DNA of 64,000 bases from Microthyrium microscopicum. Its lineage: Eukaryota. The position numbers and the translations under genes are program-made. Below the pieces are notes generated by a model that did no database searches, was not told where the DNA came from, and saw only the letters and a list, made by a program, of their open reading frames with translations. Positions 2,393-63,111 of this stretch are shown here, one piece after another (position 1 is the first letter of the stretch; the number at the start of each line of letters is the position of its first letter). The stretch spans positions 2,065,481 to 2,129,480 of the forward strand of contig MU004232.1 in assembly GCA_010405405.1 (NCBI GenBank), read 5' to 3'.

Positions 2393-4266
2393 ATGGCGGA
2401 GATCGCTTCATCCCAGAACTCGCTCACCCTCAAGCCTGACGAAATTCCTCATGTTCGGCTCGATGGCCCGCTCAAGCGTTTGCGAACCCTTGCGGAGGTC
2501 CAGGCTTCAGACGAGACCAGTAAGTTGCTTGCCGCCTAGTGGTCAAGGCCTTTAACGTTAACCTCTTTATAGTCGAAGTCTACATCGCAGAATGTGCTCC
2601 GAAATCTACCAAGGTGGTTCTAGAGTATGCATATTCATGTTCTTGTTGATCTCGAGCCTAACCATGCTGCAGTGCAATGAAGCCATTGTTGCCAGAAGAT
2701 CACAAGAAAATTAACTTGGCCCATTTACGACGACCATGCACGTGTATTCAGCTACCTCCTCCTTTGCAGCCTCGCTTCTGTCCTCCAGGCTTTCTGGAGA
2801 CTCTTGTCAGCTCTCGACGTAAGAAAGGTGGTGCTAAAACAATCTTCGTACTCCTCTGCGCTACCTGTTTGGTCGAAGAAAAGCCATTGATGGACTCCAT
2901 TGAAATCTCCTTACATGACGCTGAACACCCACCGGGAAAACTCCACCGCATTCAAGTACCCCGTTTCGCTCCTACTTCCCCGGAGCAGGCTGAGAAATGG
3001 TCTCTGATGTACTGGCCAACCTCGTTCAAGAATAACAATCCATACGGCCCACATCCTCGCATAATCGCCTTGGCTGAGATCGAATTGACCGAAGAACGGG
3101 AGCTGAACGCAGAAGCTGGCATGAAGCTGGCTCGTCGAGCTGCCGCAGATGGAAAAGAGTGTGGACTAGGAGCTGCGGTCGGCGTTTGCGTTATTGAACG
3201 ATCACCAGAATATGGCGCTCGAGTGGTTGCTGTAGCATCGGATGGCCGTTATAGAGGCACAGCTGGTTGTCATGATGATGAACAGTGTGGAGGCCGTGGA
3301 AACATTCTCGCCCACGCTGTGATGCGGGCAATAGCCTTGGTCGCCTTGAAACGTCGTATCATTGATGGAAAGGCAGGGCCACCTGCAAATCCATTGATGC
3401 ATGCTACTCACATGAATGCTGTCAATCCTCCATCTACAGATGCGCCCAGCGCAACTATTGTCATGGATCAAACGGATTCGCACAGTGATGAAGAGTCTCC
3501 AACATCTCCTGTGTCCATGTCTGCTGCGCTCGAACCGCCTGTGAGAACAGTGCCTGCAAAGGAATTTCCTCCAATGCCATCCTCCTGCCTGGACCTGCTA
3601 CCTCATATGGACTCGTCTTCAAACATTTTCCTTGATTACCCGATAACCGACATGGAAAAAGAATACTTCGATAAACCCACTCTGGCCCCGAAAGGCTATC
3701 TTGCCCTCCAACTGGAACTCTACGTAACCCACGAGCCATGCATTATGTGCAGCATGGCACTCCTCCACTCGCGATTCGGCCGAGTGATATTCGAGAAAGA
3801 AATGCGGTCGACCGGTGCCCTCATCGCTGAACGCCCACCCATGCCATCCATTCTACCCATTTTAATCCCGCGAGAACAAGGCCCCGCTCCCACCAAGAGT
3901 GCCAAACGCCGCCGCAACCGCAAGAATTCGAAGATGCGCGCTCGCGCGATTGTCGAGGCTGAGAAGGCCCGTCCGCTCGGGCCGCCGATAGAATACGGCC
4001 TTTGGTGGCGCGGCCAACTCAACTGGAAGTTTTTATGCTGGCAATGGCGCCAGGATCGTGTAGGCTTTCCCGACTCTCGACCTTCTTCTTCGAACATGTC
4101 TACTACCGGCGCGGGCACACCTTCTATTGAATGGGCCCCGTTGGACCGCGGTGGCCCAGATCCGCGTTCCAGCATGTCTGACTCTCGGCCCTCTATGGAG
4201 GACGACCTGATCGACCGCATTCGGAGCATGACCCTCGACAATCTGGACCAATACACCCACGTTTAA
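2393..4266 (+). CDS. TAD3: tRNA-specific adenosine-34 deaminase, non-catalytic subunit
   Basis: HAVMRAI (V replaces the catalytic E) and THEPCIMCSMALLHSRFGRV zinc motifs; W..YWP motif; LNW-F tail. Two short 5' introns (2520-2572 and about 2625-2672). Start codon inferred. Confidence 0.9.
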
Positions 4267-5362: not shown

Positions 5363-9859
<4,497 letters not shown>

Positions 9860-10816: not shown

Positions 10817-12612
10817 TTAACTCGACCCACAATCAGTAGCGGCTGCTACTGGATAGAACCAAGCAGCAACAGCTATGATGATGTACAGAGCCATAAGCAG
10901 TACACCCTCGAGCCAGTCTAGAGATCAAATTAGTTATACACCAGGTCAGGCGGAAATGCTGGTACTTACGACTTTTGCCATCTCCGATCAGGTAGTTGAC
11001 CAAGATGACAGCAACAAACAGAACAGCAATCTGGAAGTCATCAAACACCAAGGTCATATCCTGACCCATACCCCAGCCAATGACAACCATGAGAGGCAAC
11101 ACAAACAGAGCAATCTGCATGCTTGATCCAACAGCAACACCGATGGCAAGATCCATCTTGTCGCGCATAGCGACAGTGACAGCAGTTGCGTGCTCAGCAG
11201 CGTTACCGACAATTGGAAGAAGAATCAGACCAACGAAGTACTGCGAGATAGGATACTTGCAGGTGACACCGTTGATACTGGAGACTAGGAACTCGGAGCA
11301 GACACCAATGAGAGCAGTGGCCAGGCAGAGTGTAAGCAATGCACCCATGAAGGTAAGATTTGGCTCTTCCTCGTCGTCGTGTTCAGGCTTTTGGACTGAG
11401 CGGTTTTCATTTTGAACTCCACCACCAGAGTGAGCTCCTGCAAAGCCTCCCATTTGAGCGATGCTCTTTCGGAAATCCTTCGGGGGGCGACGCTTCTCAA
11501 CCTTCTGACTGGGCTCGTTGAACTGTGCGCGATGTGTCTTAAGCTGGAAGAACAGGAAGGCACAGTACACTATCAAAAGAATGATTGATGTGCCGTGAGA
11601 TAGCTCTTCATCTGCGTTCGACTTGGATGGATCAAAACCGTTGCCCCAGGTATAGGCGGTAGGAATGATCAGAGATCCAACAGCCAAGGCCAGAAGACTG
11701 GCAGCAGTCTGAGCAACAGTCTCGTTAAAGAACTGCTCCACTCGGTTCAATCCGCCAAAGAAGAAACACATGCCCAAAACAAGAAGCAAGTTGGAAAGCA
11801 TACTGCCAATGAGCGAGGTTTGGACGATAATGATTTCACCTTTGGTCAAGGCAATGACACCGACAATAAGTTCGACAGCATTACTGAATGATGTTAGTAA
11901 TAGAAAATAGGCAAGCAACGTAAACATACCCGAAACTGGCATTGAGCAATCCACCCAACACTTCGCCGACACGTAGTGCCACTTCCTCAGTGGCCATACT
12001 CAGCATCGCAGCAAGAGGAACAATGGCAATGAAATTAATCAAGAAGACAGCCAAAGGATCGACGTTGGTGAAGTTTAGACCGATGCCGACCGGAGCTGCA
12101 ATCAAGAGCCAGTTGATTGTGTACCAACGTGGGAATAGGACATGTCGTAGCTGTTGTCCAACGGGTATAGGGTCGTCCAAAAACATTTTTCTATATAAAC
12201 GTTTCCATCGGCCGTCTTTTTTCCCGTCATGATATTCTTCTTCGCGAGAGGTAGGCGACTCTGCAGTGAGATCATTCTTTTCCAAATCCGTGGTGCTCCG
12301 ATTTTCACCATTATTCCGACGGATCGCACCGCTACCTTCTCCATTGCTTACTGGCGCAAAGTCCTCTGCTTTTGTTGTTTTATTGAGGTCAGTGGGCGAG
12401 AAACTCAAGTCATGGGTGTTTGTACGACTGTCCGGTGCAGTTTGAGCATGATGGATTGCTTCTTCAGTGCCGCCGTCATTGACATCCCGTTCGACGTCGG
12501 TCTGGGCTCGGCGCGGTCGGTCAGAACCACCCCAAAAGTTGTAGTTTCCTTTGCTGGCTTCGCGTCTAGCTTGGCGTCTCGTTGCTCCTATATTAACTGG
12601 AGCAGATGGCAT
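10817..12612 (-). CDS. VCX1: Vacuolar Ca2+/H+ exchanger (CAX family)
   Basis: GGLLNASFG|NAVELI, GSMLSNLLLVLG, GNAAEH, KMDLAIGVAVGSSMQIALF; last exon WLEGVLLMALYIIIAVAAWFYP; two introns. Confidence 0.93.
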
Positions 12613-25375: not shown

Positions 25376-28267
25376 TGCGAACGGATCGGGATATTAAAAG
25401 TGGTACTGAATAACGAAGTTGATACGAAGGTAATGGGGCGGCAGCTTGTACAGTTGACTAGGAGAGGGCGGAAGCAGTTTAGACAGTTGTAAGGTGATGA
25501 ATTGAAGGGGTATTCTTTGCGCAAGGGAGGTAAAGTTTGCAGAGCGCGGCAAACAGGAGGCGGGCAAGTAGTGGGAGGAGGGGGGCCGTGCTTTTTTGGC
25601 GGTTGAGTCGGAAGACCCAAGTCAACTGGATTGGAATGCTGGAGGAGAATTGGATACCACGACAGAAAGGGTCTCTAGTGGCCTAGATTGGCTAGGTTGA
25701 TCAAACGGATAGAGGACAGCGGTAGTAGTGAGTGTCACAACGGAGGTTTTGGTTGCAAGATTGGAAAAATTATTATTTAGACGAGAGATGGATTATTTCA
25801 CAGGGCGAGAGAAGAGAGGAGTACAGGAGGATTCAAGGCACAAGCCAAAGATTCAATGCGGAGGAAGGTACCTCCCACACCACACTCTCCCTTCGTGCTT
25901 GCCCAGTCTTACACTCACCACCACCGCGAACCAGCTCAATTAGGAAACGACCACACAACAAGACACCAACAGCAAGCAAGTCCAGAACGACCAAGACTCA
26001 AGGCTCGCTCAAGCACACCAAGCGCACCAACTCAGAAAAGAACCACTCAGTTTTAGTTCTGCGCTCTTGATTTTAACAAGGGGCCAGCCAATCACCGCAC
26101 CGATTTATCCCCAGCTGCTACTGCTTCTGCTCCAAGCAGCTCTCGAGCTAAACCTCTTTGAGCTTCATCCGCTGCAATGAGCATGGGCTTTAAACCAACT
26201 CTACGCAACAACCTCGATGCCGAGTCGTGATACGGGGCCGATTAAACCGCATTGTGGGGTTGCACTGGATACCGTGCTCTTATTACCAACTCCACCGTAT
26301 GTTTAAAGTCCGTAACCTTTCTACATCCGTCGTTGAGAATTTGGACAGATCTATACTCTTTTGCGCCGAGAAGATTCGGCCTCCAATCCAATATAATCCA
26401 TGAGGCTGACCAAGATCGACCGTTCCAATCAGGAAGGTACGATTGGCCTAAGCATGTGCTCTTTGCCGCCTCGCTACTCCCAATCACATCTTGATATCGC
26501 TCCAATAATTCCATGAGCCAGCAATCGAGCAACGGTGCTGATTTTCTACAACATGCATCAGAAACATATCCGTATTAGCAATTGTAACGGTGAAGAGACA
26601 CCGTTATCGACTAGCATTGATTTTCTTTTGTTTCTTGTCCCACGCGAGACAAGGATAACAATATATATATTCTTTTCCCAGTCTTTCCACGTGCAATTGA
26701 GGTACAAGCTCCCTGGCCAGCTGAGCTATTCTATTTAAATTAGTTCGACCACTTTTCACCTTGATAGCCTTGTCTAGCTACGGCGCTCAAAGCTTCTAGA
26801 AGTTCTATCGGAAGGCTCATCCAATAATCATTCAATTCCCCCATACCTTTCAAATACAAAGAACCAACCCTAGAAGCATGTTAGACAATTATTACACATC
26901 TGCTATACAATTATCAGCGCACTCGATGGGAGACAGCGTAGTAGTTGACTCCCATCAGCGCTGATGGAGATTCGCGAATAACTTTGTGCAAATTCACTCT
27001 GGAATTCAATAGCGACGGTCAATAGCAATTTCTATCCAAAAGTAAACTGTACGGTTAGCTTGATATTCTTAGATCTACCGGTACTCGATCAATTGGATTT
27101 TTGTACTTGTCATCTGACACGATAATGGAACTTACTCCATAGAAAGACATGATATCTCTTTCAACTCTATTTCACAACGTATATTCCACACTCCTACACA
27201 TCGCACAAATTTTTACAAGCAGGCCAAATAACATTCCCCTTCCGACGAACTTTTACCGAAACATATAAACATCCTCACCTCCGAAGTTCTAACTTCAAAT
27301 CCAAACTCTCAAAAACCTCACATGCTGCCATTTTACCCGTCCACAAACCTGTCCACGACTCGTTCTCTAAGCCCACTCAACACACTCTGACATTTCCTAG
27401 CGCACTTGAGATACTTGACCTGCGGTTCCTAACCTCCATCATCCCACCATGCCAAACACGGAGAATTCCCTCGCAAATCCATGCTAACGGGCCCGTCTGG
27501 ACTGTCCATGGACGAGTCGGGTTTTCTCGGACCAGTACCATCTGCACTCCAGCTGCACGAGGTCGACAGTTCATGCGGGGAGACGTAAGGGTTTTCTGCT
27601 TCACTAGATAGCTTGGCTTGCATGGGGAGACGGACGATTTGGTTCGTAGCTAGTATGAGAGGCACTTGGGGAGATCTTGATGCTTTTATATAGTATGCTG
27701 TTGTGCAGTGGCACTGGCGGGTACTAACGTAATAGATCGGTAATGTACCAGCTACCTCTATTGTTTGCTAATCTTATAAGTCATTAAGTTAGGGTACTTT
27801 GGATTGTAGACTTTGAGAAAAGGAGGATGGAGGGAGGATTCGCTTCTAGAAGCGAGTTTCGTTACCTATCAATTCAGCAGATATTGACACCAGCTCCCTG
27901 GGGCAATGAATGCTGCGGGCTTGAATAACCTTGTTGCATTGACTGGTATTTTCTATCTATATTTTGATCTCAGTTCGGTGAATTGCGACTCTATCAGACA
28001 GAGATCCCTTCAAAGCAAAAAGTACCTTAGTTCACCTCACACTTCAAAGTAAAGTAAGCTCCTTGGGTGCTACACCTATTGTATTACTTCATTCAAAGGA
28101 TAAGTTCTGTCTAACGGGTTCAATAATGTAGTAGACATATAATGCACTCGATAGGAAGCATAGCAGTGTTTAATTGAGAAGTACTGTAACAAAAGTCGTA
28201 GTTAATGGAAGCGACACCTGAACTGGTTGTGCATTACTTAAGTGCGTATAAAAACGCCCCGCAGAGC

Positions 28268-28274
28268 AAAAAAA
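28268..28274 (-). terminator. Pol III oligo-T terminator of tRNA-Gln
   Basis: T7 run on the minus strand about 43 nt downstream of the tRNA 3' end. Confidence 0.6.
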
Positions 28275-28316
28275 GAAGGTTCTTTTAACTTAGAAAGTTA
28301 CGGCTTGGCCTGAGAC

Positions 28317-28453
28317 AGGTCGAACCGGGGATCGAACCCGGGTCGTGAGAAGACGAAAGTGATTTCAGAATCTCATGTGCTACCCTGGGACGAGTTAGCA
28401 TCTTCCAAAATGCTGACTACTCTTGAGGAAAACATACACTACACCATCCAACC
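28317..28453 (-). tRNA. tRNA-Gln(CTG) with a canonical 13-nt intron (28352-28364) and a 53-nt spliceosomal-type D-loop insertion (28385-28437)
   Basis: After removing both inserts: GGTTGGA TG GTGT AGTGGTA GCAC A TGAGA TTCTGAT TCTCA CGAC CCGGG TTCGATC CCCGG TTCGACC T. All four stems pair fully (G-U allowed). Anticodon CTG at 28368-28366; U discriminator. Confidence 0.9.
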
Positions 28454-29243
28454 AATTTTCCGAAGAAGAATATCCAGGATTTCGGTCCATTAGATACATA
28501 ACTCTGCGTGCTTCACGTTACCGCAAACGCCACAAATGGTGTAAAATGCTCTTACACTGACATAGAGAAAGCTTACCTCATAGACAGTTAGACAAATTTA
28601 CTGCCTTTTCTGCTTTGTTATATGCTCAATTTTCAAATTTGGTTTTTTACAAATAGGCAAAAAGCAAGCTCGAAAATCGTCGCCCAGAGCACAAGCGCAA
28701 AACGCTGCTGTCACTGTTTCATAAAGGAGCGTTAGGTCTCCCATGATTTCTAGACTCCCGGACGACGCCCTATGGCAAGTAAAGCGCTCGCTAATGGCTA
28801 AGGCATATCTCGCTCAGATGGGAGCATATCACTTACTCTCTTTTTCCTGAATCCTGAAGTTGAGGTCCTCGACTCCACTGGCTTGACTAGTAACAAACTC
28901 CCATTTAGTATGATATCTGGCATCGCACTCCATAAGGGAAGACGCTTTTGCTCTGACATATGCTTCGACTTGTCCACCGCCTCACTTGATCAATCAGAAA
29001 TAAAATATGTGAATATCTAGTCCGATGAAAATCACACAAATCGTCTTATTGCCGCGTCATTCATCAGCCACCTTTCAAGATGGCTAAGCCACTGTCATCC
29101 CACTTGCACCAGCCGTGCGCGCTCGCCATCCCTCGTTTCTCTGGCATCCATATCACAACACCATCCATTTGAGAATAGAGTACTGGCTTCGATTGCTGTT
29201 TGCTCATCCATTTCTCATATCTGGTAAATCCCCACGTACGGCA

Positions 29244-30760
29244 ATGGTCGAGCCTGATTCCGGGCCTGACAATCCGCACGTCCCAAAGTTGCCTGCTGGT
29301 GCGCATTGCTCCGAGCTCTAGAAAGTCAACAATATGCTAATTGCTTACAGGCTGGATTGCGCAGTGGGATTCCAAGTACGTGACATTCCTAAACGGCAAG
29401 CTCATCGCGACTGCCTGCGTCGGCATGACCGCAAGTCGTCACTTTCCGTGACCAGCCACCCGATCGTCACTTCAAAGCAAACACCCTATCAAACACAACG
29501 ACGACCGTCTATTTCAACGGACGTTGCTGACTTCTCTATCAACCATAGCTCGCGAAAATACTATTACGTTCAAATATCGACCGGTAAATCGACCTGGGAA
29601 ACCCCTACAACTATCGCACCCGGCGTTGTCACAGGCAGCACCAGCACCACACCCGCACAAGGGACACCTTATTCGCCCCCAAATTCGCATTCCACAATGT
29701 CCGGAGAGTATAATCAAGAGGGAACGAGAGGTATGGAGCATGGCGAGAGTACAGATAGAGCTGGCGGATTGGGAGTGAGTGGCATTCTTTCAAGGGATAT
29801 ACTAGTCATCAACCAATGAAGTCTGACATGATATAGGGAATGGCTATGAACATGCTCTCAGGAGGTGGCGGCAAGCAGTCGGGAAGTCTCGTGGGCCAAC
29901 TCGCTTCGGGACTGCTAGGCGGCAATTCCAAACCATCAAGTGGTCATGGTGGTAGCTCACCAGGTGGTAGTTTTGTAGGCAACCTAGCCTCTGATTTCCT
30001 CGGTGGTGGGAGCCACAATAAGCCAACACAACAGAGTGGGAATTCTTCAAGTGGAGGTGGTTCCGGCGGTGGTATGCTTGGAAGCATCCTTGGTGGAGTT
30101 CTAGGTCATGGAAGCCACTCCCAGAATCAGAACTTTGGATACTCTCATACGGGCCAAAGCGGCACATATTCTGGACAAGAACCTCCGGCTACTTATCCTT
30201 CTCCAGCAGCACATGGAGCATATGGAAAACCTCAGCCTGTAGGACAGCACCATAATACACAGCCATCTCAAGCACCTCAATCATATGGCAACCAGTCAGG
30301 CTCGTACAACGCGCCTACCCCTGCGCAACATCATCAAGGTGGATATGGACAGCAAGAGTATGGTAGCCATAGCCAAAGTCACAGCCCTTATCCAAGCCAG
30401 GAGCCACCTCGTCCATCATACAGTAATCAAGGGAGCTCATACGGTGGACCTCAGGGACAATACCCAAGTCAACCACCACCAGGACAATACCCAAGTCAGC
30501 CGCCACCTGGACAATATTCCAATCAACCGCCGCACAACCAATATGGTACTCCTTCTCATGATCAAGGCCAGTATGGCGGTCAACAACAGAGTGGAGGTGG
30601 ATTTCCTGGACAAGGTCATGGCCCGGGTAGTGGAGGTGGTTTTCCAGGTCAAGGCCATGGCCCAGGTAGTCATCACCAGCAACAAGGGTATAACCAACAG
30701 CCAGGAGGCTATGGTCAACAGGGCGGATATCAATCGGGTCCTCCCCAACCTCAATGGTAG
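29244..30760 (+). CDS. WW-domain protein with Gly/Gln/Pro/Tyr-rich tail (Wwm1-like)
   Basis: Spliced small exons give LPAGWIAQWDSNSRKYYYVQISTGKSTWETP (WW domain). Three introns, then low-complexity ORF 29840-30760. Confidence 0.85.
30455..30667 (+). repeat. Coding tandem repeats: about 3 x 27 bp (GQYPSQPPP) and 2 x 39 bp (SGGGFPGQGHGPG)
   Basis: Visible in both DNA and translation; copies differ mostly at synonymous positions. Confidence 0.85.
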
Positions 30761-30980: not shown

Positions 30981-32257
30981 TCAGTCGGAATCACCCATCA
31001 AATCTGCTAATTCTCGCTCTTCTTCTTCAGTCATCAAGTTCTCCTTCTTCTCTTCCTCTTTACCCTGCTCAAACACTTCGATTTCCTTCTTCATCTCATC
31101 GGTACCGAGACCCCACCTTCTTACTGTTCCATCGATACCGACACTTACGACTGCCTTTCCGCCAGCAACTATAGCTAGTCCAGTAACTTCATCCCAATGT
31201 CCTCTTAGTCTCGCGAGACATTTGCCCCTGCCGCCTTCCCAAACCCGTACATCCTCATCTCTACTTCCCGTCACTACCAGATCGCGATCCTGTGCCAGAG
31301 CTACACATTTGACATAGTCGTCATGTGCCAAAGTCGTGTCCGCAGTGTAGTTGTGCGCCCGAGAAAGCCGTTTAGATGTTTTGTCTGCACTAGCAGTCCA
31401 TAGGTCACCACTGGTAGAATAAGTCAGACTATATAGTGATGTCTCATGTATCACTAGCGGATCTATATCTGCATCAGATGCTGATTTGGAGACTGGTGTC
31501 TCGCTCGCTGCATCTCCGGTGGAAATCTCGAATGCAGCTTTTGCAGAAACGTGCCAGAAGCGGATCTCTCGATTTGAGTCTCCGCTGGCGATGATAGCTG
31601 ATTCATCATCACTAGGTCCGCCGAGCACATCTGGGAGACTCAAAGGGTCGATAGCGAGTGCTTGAACACCGCGTTGATGGCCTGTCAGGACATGTAATTT
31701 TGTCAAAGATATAGCATCCCAAACAATCAGCGATTTATCTGCTGATGCTGAGACTAGAAGTGGCGTTTCTCGGAATGGAATAACGACGAGAGCTTTCAAA
31801 AAATCCGAGTGCCCTTGCAAGGTGGTAGTCGACGTTGCCGATGCCGGCACTGAGGCCTTTATGGGCCATACGTAGACATTTTTATCCCATGAACCAGCGA
31901 AAAGAGTTCCGGTGGTTGGTGAAGTGACGTGAATAGCAAGACAAGTGAATGGGTTCGGTGGAGTTGATGGACGAAGAGTGTGGGATGTCGTGCCAGTTTC
32001 GAGGCCGATACGCTTGATAGTACCGGCCGCTTCGGCAACATAGATGGCATTTTCGTTGAAGGGATCTGATATCACGCCTAGGAGTTTGGATGGGAGCTTT
32101 ATTGGACTTCCGGCTTGGTTCTTGGATTTTTGAGCTTTGCGGCTTGATTCTGATATCGCAGCACTGTATTTGTGGGTCAGATCTGCGCATCAGAGACGTC
32201 CAATTCGAAGACTTACTCGGTTTGGAAGTAGTGTTCTGCTTCAACTGATTGCCTCAT
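30981..32257 (-). CDS. WD40-repeat protein
   Basis: Repeats GHSDFLKAL..SASADKSLIVWD, GHQRGVQAL, HDDYVKCV..TGSRDEDVRVWE, GHWDEVTGL..DGTVRRW. Exon 1 MRQSVEAEHYFQT followed by a GTAAGT intron. Confidence 0.88.
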
Positions 32258-63002: not shown

Positions 63003-63111
63003 TGGAGCTGGCGAAATTCGAACCCGCAGTACCACTGGCCTGGGAGCAGCAGGGAAAAGGATTCAGCGTCAGCCAATGTCCTGGGCGTGTTACCAATTAC
63101 ACTACAACCCC
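63003..63111 (-). ncRNA. tRNA-like Pol III gene: Ala-type acceptor with aberrant expanded anticodon domain; possibly a pseudo-tRNA
   Basis: Acceptor GGGGTTG/CAGCTCC-A with G3:U70; D arm GTGT-AATTGGTA-ACAC; T arm GCGGG-TTCGAAT-TTCGC; T7 run 5 nt downstream. No canonical anticodon arm. Confidence 0.7.

Follow-up and report, generated by a model that had tools for sequence, protein, structure and literature searches.

Introns of the messenger RNA (mRNA) type are known in a number of non-coding RNA genes, and the closest described parallel to the gene considered here is the U6 small nuclear RNA (snRNA) gene of S. pombe, an RNA polymerase III (Pol III) transcript whose mRNA-type intron is spliced by the spliceosome; according to PMC5855946, other fungal U6 genes also bear introns. 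PMC5855946 and PMC5832005 report spliceosomal introns in U1, U2 and U5 snRNA genes, in U3 small nucleolar RNA genes and in ribosomal RNA (rRNA) genes. Eukaryotic transfer RNA (tRNA) introns are placed between N37 and N38 in a 2023 review (PMC10275265), and a 2025 paper (PMC12530127) treats the spliceosomal, tRNA and XBP1 introns as classes that have no relation to one another, three in all; in such accounts nuclear tRNA introns are taken out by the tRNA endonuclease. Here we describe a tRNA-Gln(CTG) gene in a 64,000-nucleotide (nt) stretch of DNA from Microthyrium microscopicum (GenBank assembly GCA_010405405.1, contig MU004232.1, positions 2,065,481 to 2,129,480; the whole of this stretch is called "the window" below). 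Its D-loop is interrupted by a 53-nt GT-AG insert that is a candidate U2-type spliceosomal intron, and a 13-nt canonical tRNA intron is present in the same gene.

The insert resembles the S. pombe U6 intron in being a short GT-AG sequence with a branch-site motif in a small, structured non-coding gene with Pol III-type internal promoter elements, putative ones in the tRNA gene. Its host is, however, a tRNA and not a component of the spliceosome, the origin by reverse splicing at the active site that was proposed for U6 is not obviously applicable to it, and the tRNA-Gln gene differs further in having a second intron, of the endonuclease class. With the introns of U1, U2, U5 and fungal U3 genes and of the rRNA genes of lichen-forming ascomycetes it shares canonical 5', branch and 3' sites in a fungal non-coding gene, but those hosts are mostly RNA polymerase II (Pol II) or RNA polymerase I genes, and no tRNA is named in the host lists of PMC5855946 and PMC5832005. 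The 13-nt intron matches the canonical type cut by the Sen/TSEN endonuclease (position 37/38, extended anticodon stem, bulged splice sites), whereas the 53-nt insert lies in the D-loop at 16/17, is without such structure and has spliceosomal signals instead. Introns outside 37/38, some of them in the D arm and sometimes beside a canonical intron, are described in PMC4090602 and PMC3978253 for archaea, for the nucleomorphs of cryptophytes and chlorarachniophytes, and for Cyanidioschyzon merolae; these use motifs like the bulge-helix-bulge (BHB) together with the endonuclease, whereas the insert described here has GT, CTAAC and AG and no BHB. Introner-like elements and recent intron gain in fungi also put short spliceosomal introns at new sites (PMC11146597), and insertion into a tRNA gene could be such an event. 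Introner-like elements serve as introns in many near-identical copies across a genome; within the 64-kb window no further copy of the insert occurs, and its best match elsewhere in that stretch is 11 nt long.

Full-text literature searches, with most subscription journals and supplements outside their scope, turned up no nuclear tRNA gene with a reported spliceosomal intron, which agrees, for the full texts searched, with the statement of a first model-made reading of these letters (the sequence-only reading below) that no established case in a tRNA is known. At this locus an intron of a known class would occupy a type of host gene from which it has not been reported, alongside a canonical tRNA intron in the same gene. 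We consider it likely, judging the part played by the spliceosome from the signals, that the host is a nuclear tRNA gene of a filamentous ascomycete and that its 53-nt insert is a real spliceosomal intron of the U2 type. The sequence-only reading had interpreted it in the same way, and that interpretation is supported by the splice signals, by the lack of a BHB, by a site other than 37/38, and by a contig in public data from which the insert is missing.

Anatomy of the tRNA-Gln(CTG) gene

The gene occupies 28453..28317 on the minus strand, on which all features described in this section lie, and our reading of the sequence together with the tRNA finder ARAGORN divides it into three exons separated by two introns. 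Exon 1 (28438..28453, 16 nt) supplies the 5' strand of the acceptor stem, positions 8-9, the 5' strand of the D stem and the first three bases of the D-loop. The 53-nt insert (28385..28437) follows in the D-loop, between tRNA positions 16 and 17. Exon 2 (28365..28384, 20 nt), as placed in the ARAGORN cloverleaf, contains the remainder of the D-loop (GGTA), the 3' strand of the D stem, the 5' strand of the anticodon stem and the anticodon loop as far as position 37, so that its final base is one past the CTG anticodon. The 13-nt canonical intron (28352..28364), which ARAGORN finds with its -i option, separates positions 37 and 38. Exon 3 (28317..28351, 35 nt) has position 38, the 3' strand of the anticodon stem, the variable loop, the T arm with the B box, the 3' strand of the acceptor stem and a discriminator T. 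The coordinates of a tRNA-Gln(CTG) with a D-loop insert and a 13-nt intron at 37/38, as first proposed from the letters, were reproduced, and the run of seven T residues (T7) proposed to follow the gene is indeed there, at 28274..28268.

The intact gene is invisible to the finders that we used, and the suspicion that standard programs would miss it was borne out. ARAGORN called 0 tRNAs in the whole 64-kb window and made no call on the intact 271-nt locus, whether its intron option was on or off. Rfam at its gathering score gave no match at the locus (its single tRNA match in the window lies elsewhere, at 63003..63111), and a permissive Rfam search of 27800..29000 returned three weak matches, none of them to a tRNA and none overlapping the locus. 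In tRNAscan-SE 2.0, according to the description of its intron search in PMC8450103, non-canonical introns are sought solely with archaeal BHB models.

When 28437..28385 was removed by a script, ARAGORN -i called a tRNA-Gln(ctg) of 71 nt with the 13-nt intron beside the anticodon. The rebuilt ARAGORN cloverleaf has a 7-base-pair (bp) acceptor stem, a 4-bp D stem, GG in the D-loop, 5-bp anticodon and T stems and a TTCGATC T-loop, and it keeps the conserved features of a tRNA (the D-loop GG, U33, the T-loop and the CTG anticodon). The effect was examined across the window by deleting each GT..AG stretch of 35–120 nt on both strands, one at a time, and running ARAGORN on each of the resulting 40,197 constructs. 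Only 8 of these gave a tRNA call, and all eight were at the tRNA-Gln locus: five were minus-strand tRNA-Gln variants, the 53-nt deletion among them, and the remaining three, antisense Leu calls from the plus strand, are in our view spurious.

Splice signals of the insert and of nearby mRNA introns

The insert begins with the 5' splice site GTATGT (28432..28437, minus strand), contains the branch-site motif GCTAAC (28394..28399), within the heptamer GCTAACT, and terminates in CCCAG, the 3' splice site CAG occupying 28385..28387. The second A of the motif, at 28395, is the putative branch A, and 10 nt of the insert are left after it. GTATGT fits the fungal 5' consensus GURNGU, the branch motif fits CURAY and the 3' end fits YAG. 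A 53-mer that starts with GTRNGY, has CTRAY 8–35 nt from its end and terminates in YAG is rare in this DNA (of 127,894 53-mers in the window 3 qualify, and multiplying the marginal frequencies of the three signals gives 6.8e-6), and since the set of signals is so rare, an arbitrary insertion would be unlikely to bear it exactly at the borders whose removal restores the cloverleaf.

For comparison, candidate mRNA introns were collected from the window with a coding filter that asks for at least 45 open codons on each side and a continuing frame. Eleven candidates with such coding support were found, 46–125 nt long, some of which have a splice site in common. They open with GTAAGT, GTATGT, GTGAGT or similar, have CTAAC or CTGAC near the end and close with CAG or TAG; the branch A is 8–13 nt from the end in 8 of the 11 and 19–27 nt from it in the other three. 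GTATGT also opens the candidate at 11929..11884, the heptamer GCTAACT recurs in the candidate at 7233..7188, there 9 nt from the end, and a coding-supported candidate of 53 nt lies in a WD40 gene at 32216..32164. By its signals, their spacing and its length, the tRNA insert as read from the DNA is indistinguishable from these candidate mRNA introns. The size and signals of the insert had earlier been likened to those of the mRNA introns of the window, and the likeness holds, with 53 nt falling within 46–125 nt and the motifs being the same; the example then given, a 53-nt first intron in the Tad3 gene, was not reproduced, the motif filter yielding candidates of 48 and 71 nt next to the open reading frame of that gene (2625..2672 and 2625..2695).

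Predicted folding of the precursor

When the 137-nt precursor is folded to minimum energy, a 5-bp helix with a 3-nt bulge on either side is added to the anticodon stem by the 13-nt intron, which is thus predicted to fold as a classic endonuclease substrate. No BHB was found at the borders of the 53-nt insert in the same fold, in which the insert is folded on itself and its 5' border is unpaired. By location, too, the two differ: the 13-nt intron is at the 37/38 site of canonical tRNA introns, and the insert, at 16/17, is not. Folded alone, the insert reaches -10.3 kcal/mol, and part of that fold is a hairpin with a 7-bp stem at 28395..28418 on the minus strand, in which some of the GCTAAC motif is paired.

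A joined form in public sequencing data

A search of public data yielded seven sequencing runs, X1 to X7, none of which is on record as RNA. X1–X4 are four runs of one sample, which is a possible source of the window DNA; X5 and X7 both come from another sample, sequenced in a second study, with 0.66 of the sampled words in X5 and next to none in X7; and X6, which belongs to a third study, has 0.39 of these words and the label "RNA?", which is a guess. Contigs of X1, X5, X6 and X7 were placed on 27900..28900.

X1 holds the whole of that stretch within one 40,283-nt contig, the only X1 contig on it, and no second DNA copy with the same trailer was seen there. X5 covers 27900..28146 and 28406..28891 without a difference and has no cover on 28147..28405. 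The second of these pieces (record 3) is a DNA contig in which exon 1 runs directly into the first 32 nt of the insert. Because X5 comes from a separate sample and study and also has this border, the insert did not arise through faulty assembly of a single data set. X7 has no contig on 27900..28900. Stretches without cover were given no weight as evidence.

X6 has three letter-perfect contigs that account for 439 bases in 27900..28900, and no contig on 28385..28741 or 27990..28194. One of the three, record 5, is 206 nt long with a mean word depth of 43.9 and matches 28195..28384 without a differing letter or a gap. Its 16-letter loose end past 28384 is the plus strand of 28438..28453, which is exon 1 (the chance of a 16/16 match is about 2e-10). 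Record 5 joins exon 1 to 28384, and the 53 nt are absent from it exactly at GT|AG. It is the stop at 28384 that fixes the 3' junction, although a cut shifted by one base (TA..GG) yields the identical product, as the insert and exon 2 both start with G. The exon 1–exon 2 junction that had been predicted from the letters is present in this one contig of one run whose RNA label is guessed. Record 5 begins at the first tRNA base (+1), retains the 13-nt intron and extends through a 122-nt 3' trailer (28195..28316, minus strand); retention of the 13-nt intron is expected if two separate machineries act in turn.

Although the three X6 contigs lie within 1 kb of one another, their mean word depths are 4.8, 43.9 and 968.3. 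Such uneven depths, together with identity to the window, fit single-copy DNA poorly, and X1 is a single contig in the same place; we infer from this that X6, the label of which is a guess, behaves like RNA of the same organism.

Putative promoter and terminator elements

DNA positions 8–19 of the tRNA, which we take from consensus sequences to be the A box, read TGGTGTAGTGTA, and the sole loss is the second G of the GG pair, since the insert starts with G. What we likewise take to be the B box, GGTTCGATCCC, is intact, and the A box starts 108 nt upstream of it. The sequence-only reading held that the insert splits the A box; that box is only nicked, with the last G of its GG lost. Downstream on the minus strand are the T7 run (28268..28274), which resembles a Pol III terminator and lies 43–49 nt past the tRNA end, and beyond it a run of five T residues (T5, 28250..28254). 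The intact B box, the nearly whole A box and the T7 run would fit transcription by Pol III. The contig that reads through these runs fits Pol II or read-through transcripts better than Pol III, and hints that such transcripts are made.

The lack of long T runs in the insert was also considered as a sign of compatibility with Pol III and was set aside as uninformative: the longest run in the insert is T4, and nine candidate mRNA introns likewise have maxima of T2–T4.

Alternative explanations

Several observations count against the view that a spliceosomal intron interrupts a tRNA gene here. The junction comes from a single contig of a single run, and the joint table is empty for it since the exon 1 side has only 16 letters; that X6 is RNA is, again, a guess. 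As a de Bruijn contig, record 5 can be chimeric: the words across the junction could derive from reads of end-matured pre-tRNA of a paralogue that has the same 13-nt intron and no insert, and a repeat boundary would likewise put the start exactly at +1. Exon 1 is just 16 nt long plus its leader, and the branch motif GCTAAC is partly paired in a hairpin within the insert in the minimum-energy fold. Record 5 passes through T7 and T5 to 28195, which is unexpected of a Pol III pre-tRNA, and it might represent a by-product of Pol II or read-through transcription rather than the productive pre-tRNA. A metagenome scan with a two-sided pattern (the end of exon 1 plus GT, a gap of 35–65 nt, and AG plus the start of exon 2) gave 0 matches, and a scan with a 20-nt stretch of exon 2 also gave 0.

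The rival explanation that survives best, although it is unlikely, combines a dead gene with an assembly effect: the locus would be a pseudogene with an intron-like 53-nt insertion, and the junction words in X6 would come from an uninterrupted paralogue, be it a pre-tRNA with mature ends or a separate locus, and have been joined to the trailer of this locus. It is favored by the de Bruijn origin of the contigs and by the start of record 5 at exactly +1, which is where the flanks of paralogues would diverge, as well as by the 16 letters on the exon 1 side, for which the joint table lists nothing. On the other side, a random insert with all three splice signals correctly placed has a chance of about 1e-5, the X6 contig runs unbroken for 122 nt into the trailer of this very locus, the tRNA body is otherwise undamaged, and pre-tRNAs of 84 nt are poorly captured by ordinary RNA sequencing libraries.

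Quite unlikely, and a little more so than a dead gene, is the explanation that the splicing is real and its product of no use, in that only Pol II or read-through transcripts are spliced and the Pol III pre-tRNA stays unspliced and is degraded, with no functional tRNA made. The only RNA-like molecule seen does read through T7 and T5 for at least 122 nt, and recruitment of the spliceosome is normally coupled to Pol II. However, the intact tRNA body, B box and canonical intron argue for continued selection or a very recent insertion. A Pol II origin, moreover, would not preclude function, as RNase P and RNase Z can free tRNAs from Pol II transcripts, and the U6 gene of S. pombe (PMC5855946) shows that Pol III transcripts can be spliced.

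Slightly less probable again is a polymorphism for presence or absence at the DNA level, by which the genome of the X6 organism would be without the 53 nt and the contig would be an unspliced transcript, or the DNA, of an intron-less allele and so would say nothing about splicing in the organism of the window. X6 is filed under a different organism code from that of the possible source of the window, its RNA label is guessed, and recent intron gain that is polymorphic within a species has been described in some fungi (PMC5647799). Yet X6 is letter-identical to the window over 439 of 439 bases, the non-coding trailer included, and X5, under a third organism code, is equally identical and holds the exon 1–insert junction; a DNA contig of X6 should furthermore extend past the tRNA start into the flank on its 5' side, and DNA would hardly be expected to vary in depth from 4.8 through 43.9 to 968.3 over 1 kb.

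Excision without the spliceosome, the insert being a non-canonical tRNA intron cut by the tRNA endonuclease plus ligase or by another nuclease plus ligase, is very improbable: introns in the D arm of nucleomorph and C. merolae tRNA genes have had their excision confirmed by reverse transcription-polymerase chain reaction, but nucleomorph inserts measure 3–24 nt (both in PMC4090602), the minimum-energy fold has no BHB at the borders, the full set of spliceosomal signals would be an unexplained coincidence, and the fungal endonuclease reportedly finds the 37/38 site by its distance from the mature domain.

A possible maturation pathway

The gene could be a working tRNA-Gln(CUG) gene whose product arises only after the spliceosome, and then the tRNA endonuclease and ligase, have removed an intron each; we put this forward tentatively, with chances a little short of even. 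The precursor may be made, at least partly, by Pol II reading through the Pol III terminator. On the reading of a spliceosomal intron, which we consider likely, the locus would first be transcribed from its minus strand, as record 5 documents if X6 is RNA. The nuclear spliceosome would then excise the 53 nt at GU|AG by means of GUAUGU, GCUAAC and CAG, a step of which the precise removal is seen in record 5 and to which the spliceosome is assigned from the signals. RNase P would cut at +1, as is suggested by the start of the contig at the first tRNA base. Last, the 3' trailer would be removed and the tRNA splicing endonuclease and ligase would excise the 13-nt intron.

Record 5 looks like an intermediate between the last two of these stages, because the trailer and the 13-nt intron are still present in it. 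A molecule from which the D-loop insert is gone, in which the 13-nt intron and trailer are kept and whose 5' end is at +1 is the intermediate expected if a nuclear spliceosomal step precedes all others and the endonuclease acts at the end. End maturation and export come before tRNA splicing in budding yeast.

Were all of this true, the tRNA-Gln of M. microscopicum would be the first tRNA seen to need both splicing machineries, and the decoding of CAG would depend partly on the spliceosome. Confirmation would mean that the spliceosome can act on a pre-tRNA and that one small RNA traverses both splicing systems in a defined order; it would also mean that tRNA gene counts in fungi may be too low, since ARAGORN and the Rfam tRNA model (run with cmscan) are blind to such genes. 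The locus may belong to a hidden class of fungal tRNA genes passed over by every tRNA finder, and be the first of them to come to light. It makes a compact natural test case for the colonization of non-coding genes by introns and for whether splicing needs Pol II.

Surroundings of the tRNA gene

A second tRNA-like gene is present at 63003..63111 on the minus strand, where the Rfam tRNA model scores 34.4 bits; its acceptor, D and T arms are perfect and a T7 run lies just downstream, with about 50 nt in the place of a 17-nt anticodon arm and no ARAGORN call. It was tried as a second split gene and rejected: 8,402 single deletions gave 216 ARAGORN calls, many with conflicting anticodons, only two of the deleted pieces had the form GT/GC..AG, both of these started with GC and were an implausible 13–16 nt long, and none appeared in the GT..AG scan.

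That the window comes from an ascomycete is indicated by its WD40 gene (30984..32189), for which the best protein-atlas clusters are from Ascomycota. The window also encodes a Tad3-like deaminase, a JmjC protein, Nup49, a Ras GTPase and a glucuronyl esterase, and it has VTC and ABC transporter genes. The open reading frame that had been named Tad3 (2662..4263, plus strand) has a cytidine/deoxycytidylate deaminase zinc-binding motif (Pfam PF00383, E 1.7e-07). Upstream of the tRNA gene, an X6 contig of 4,762 nt with a mean word depth of 968 starts at 28742, 288 nt from the tRNA start, and points the opposite way. It probably covers a gene at about 29322..30760 on the plus strand for a WW-domain protein rich in Gln, Gly and Pro, in which case the tRNA gene would share a short divergent intergenic region with this WW-domain gene.

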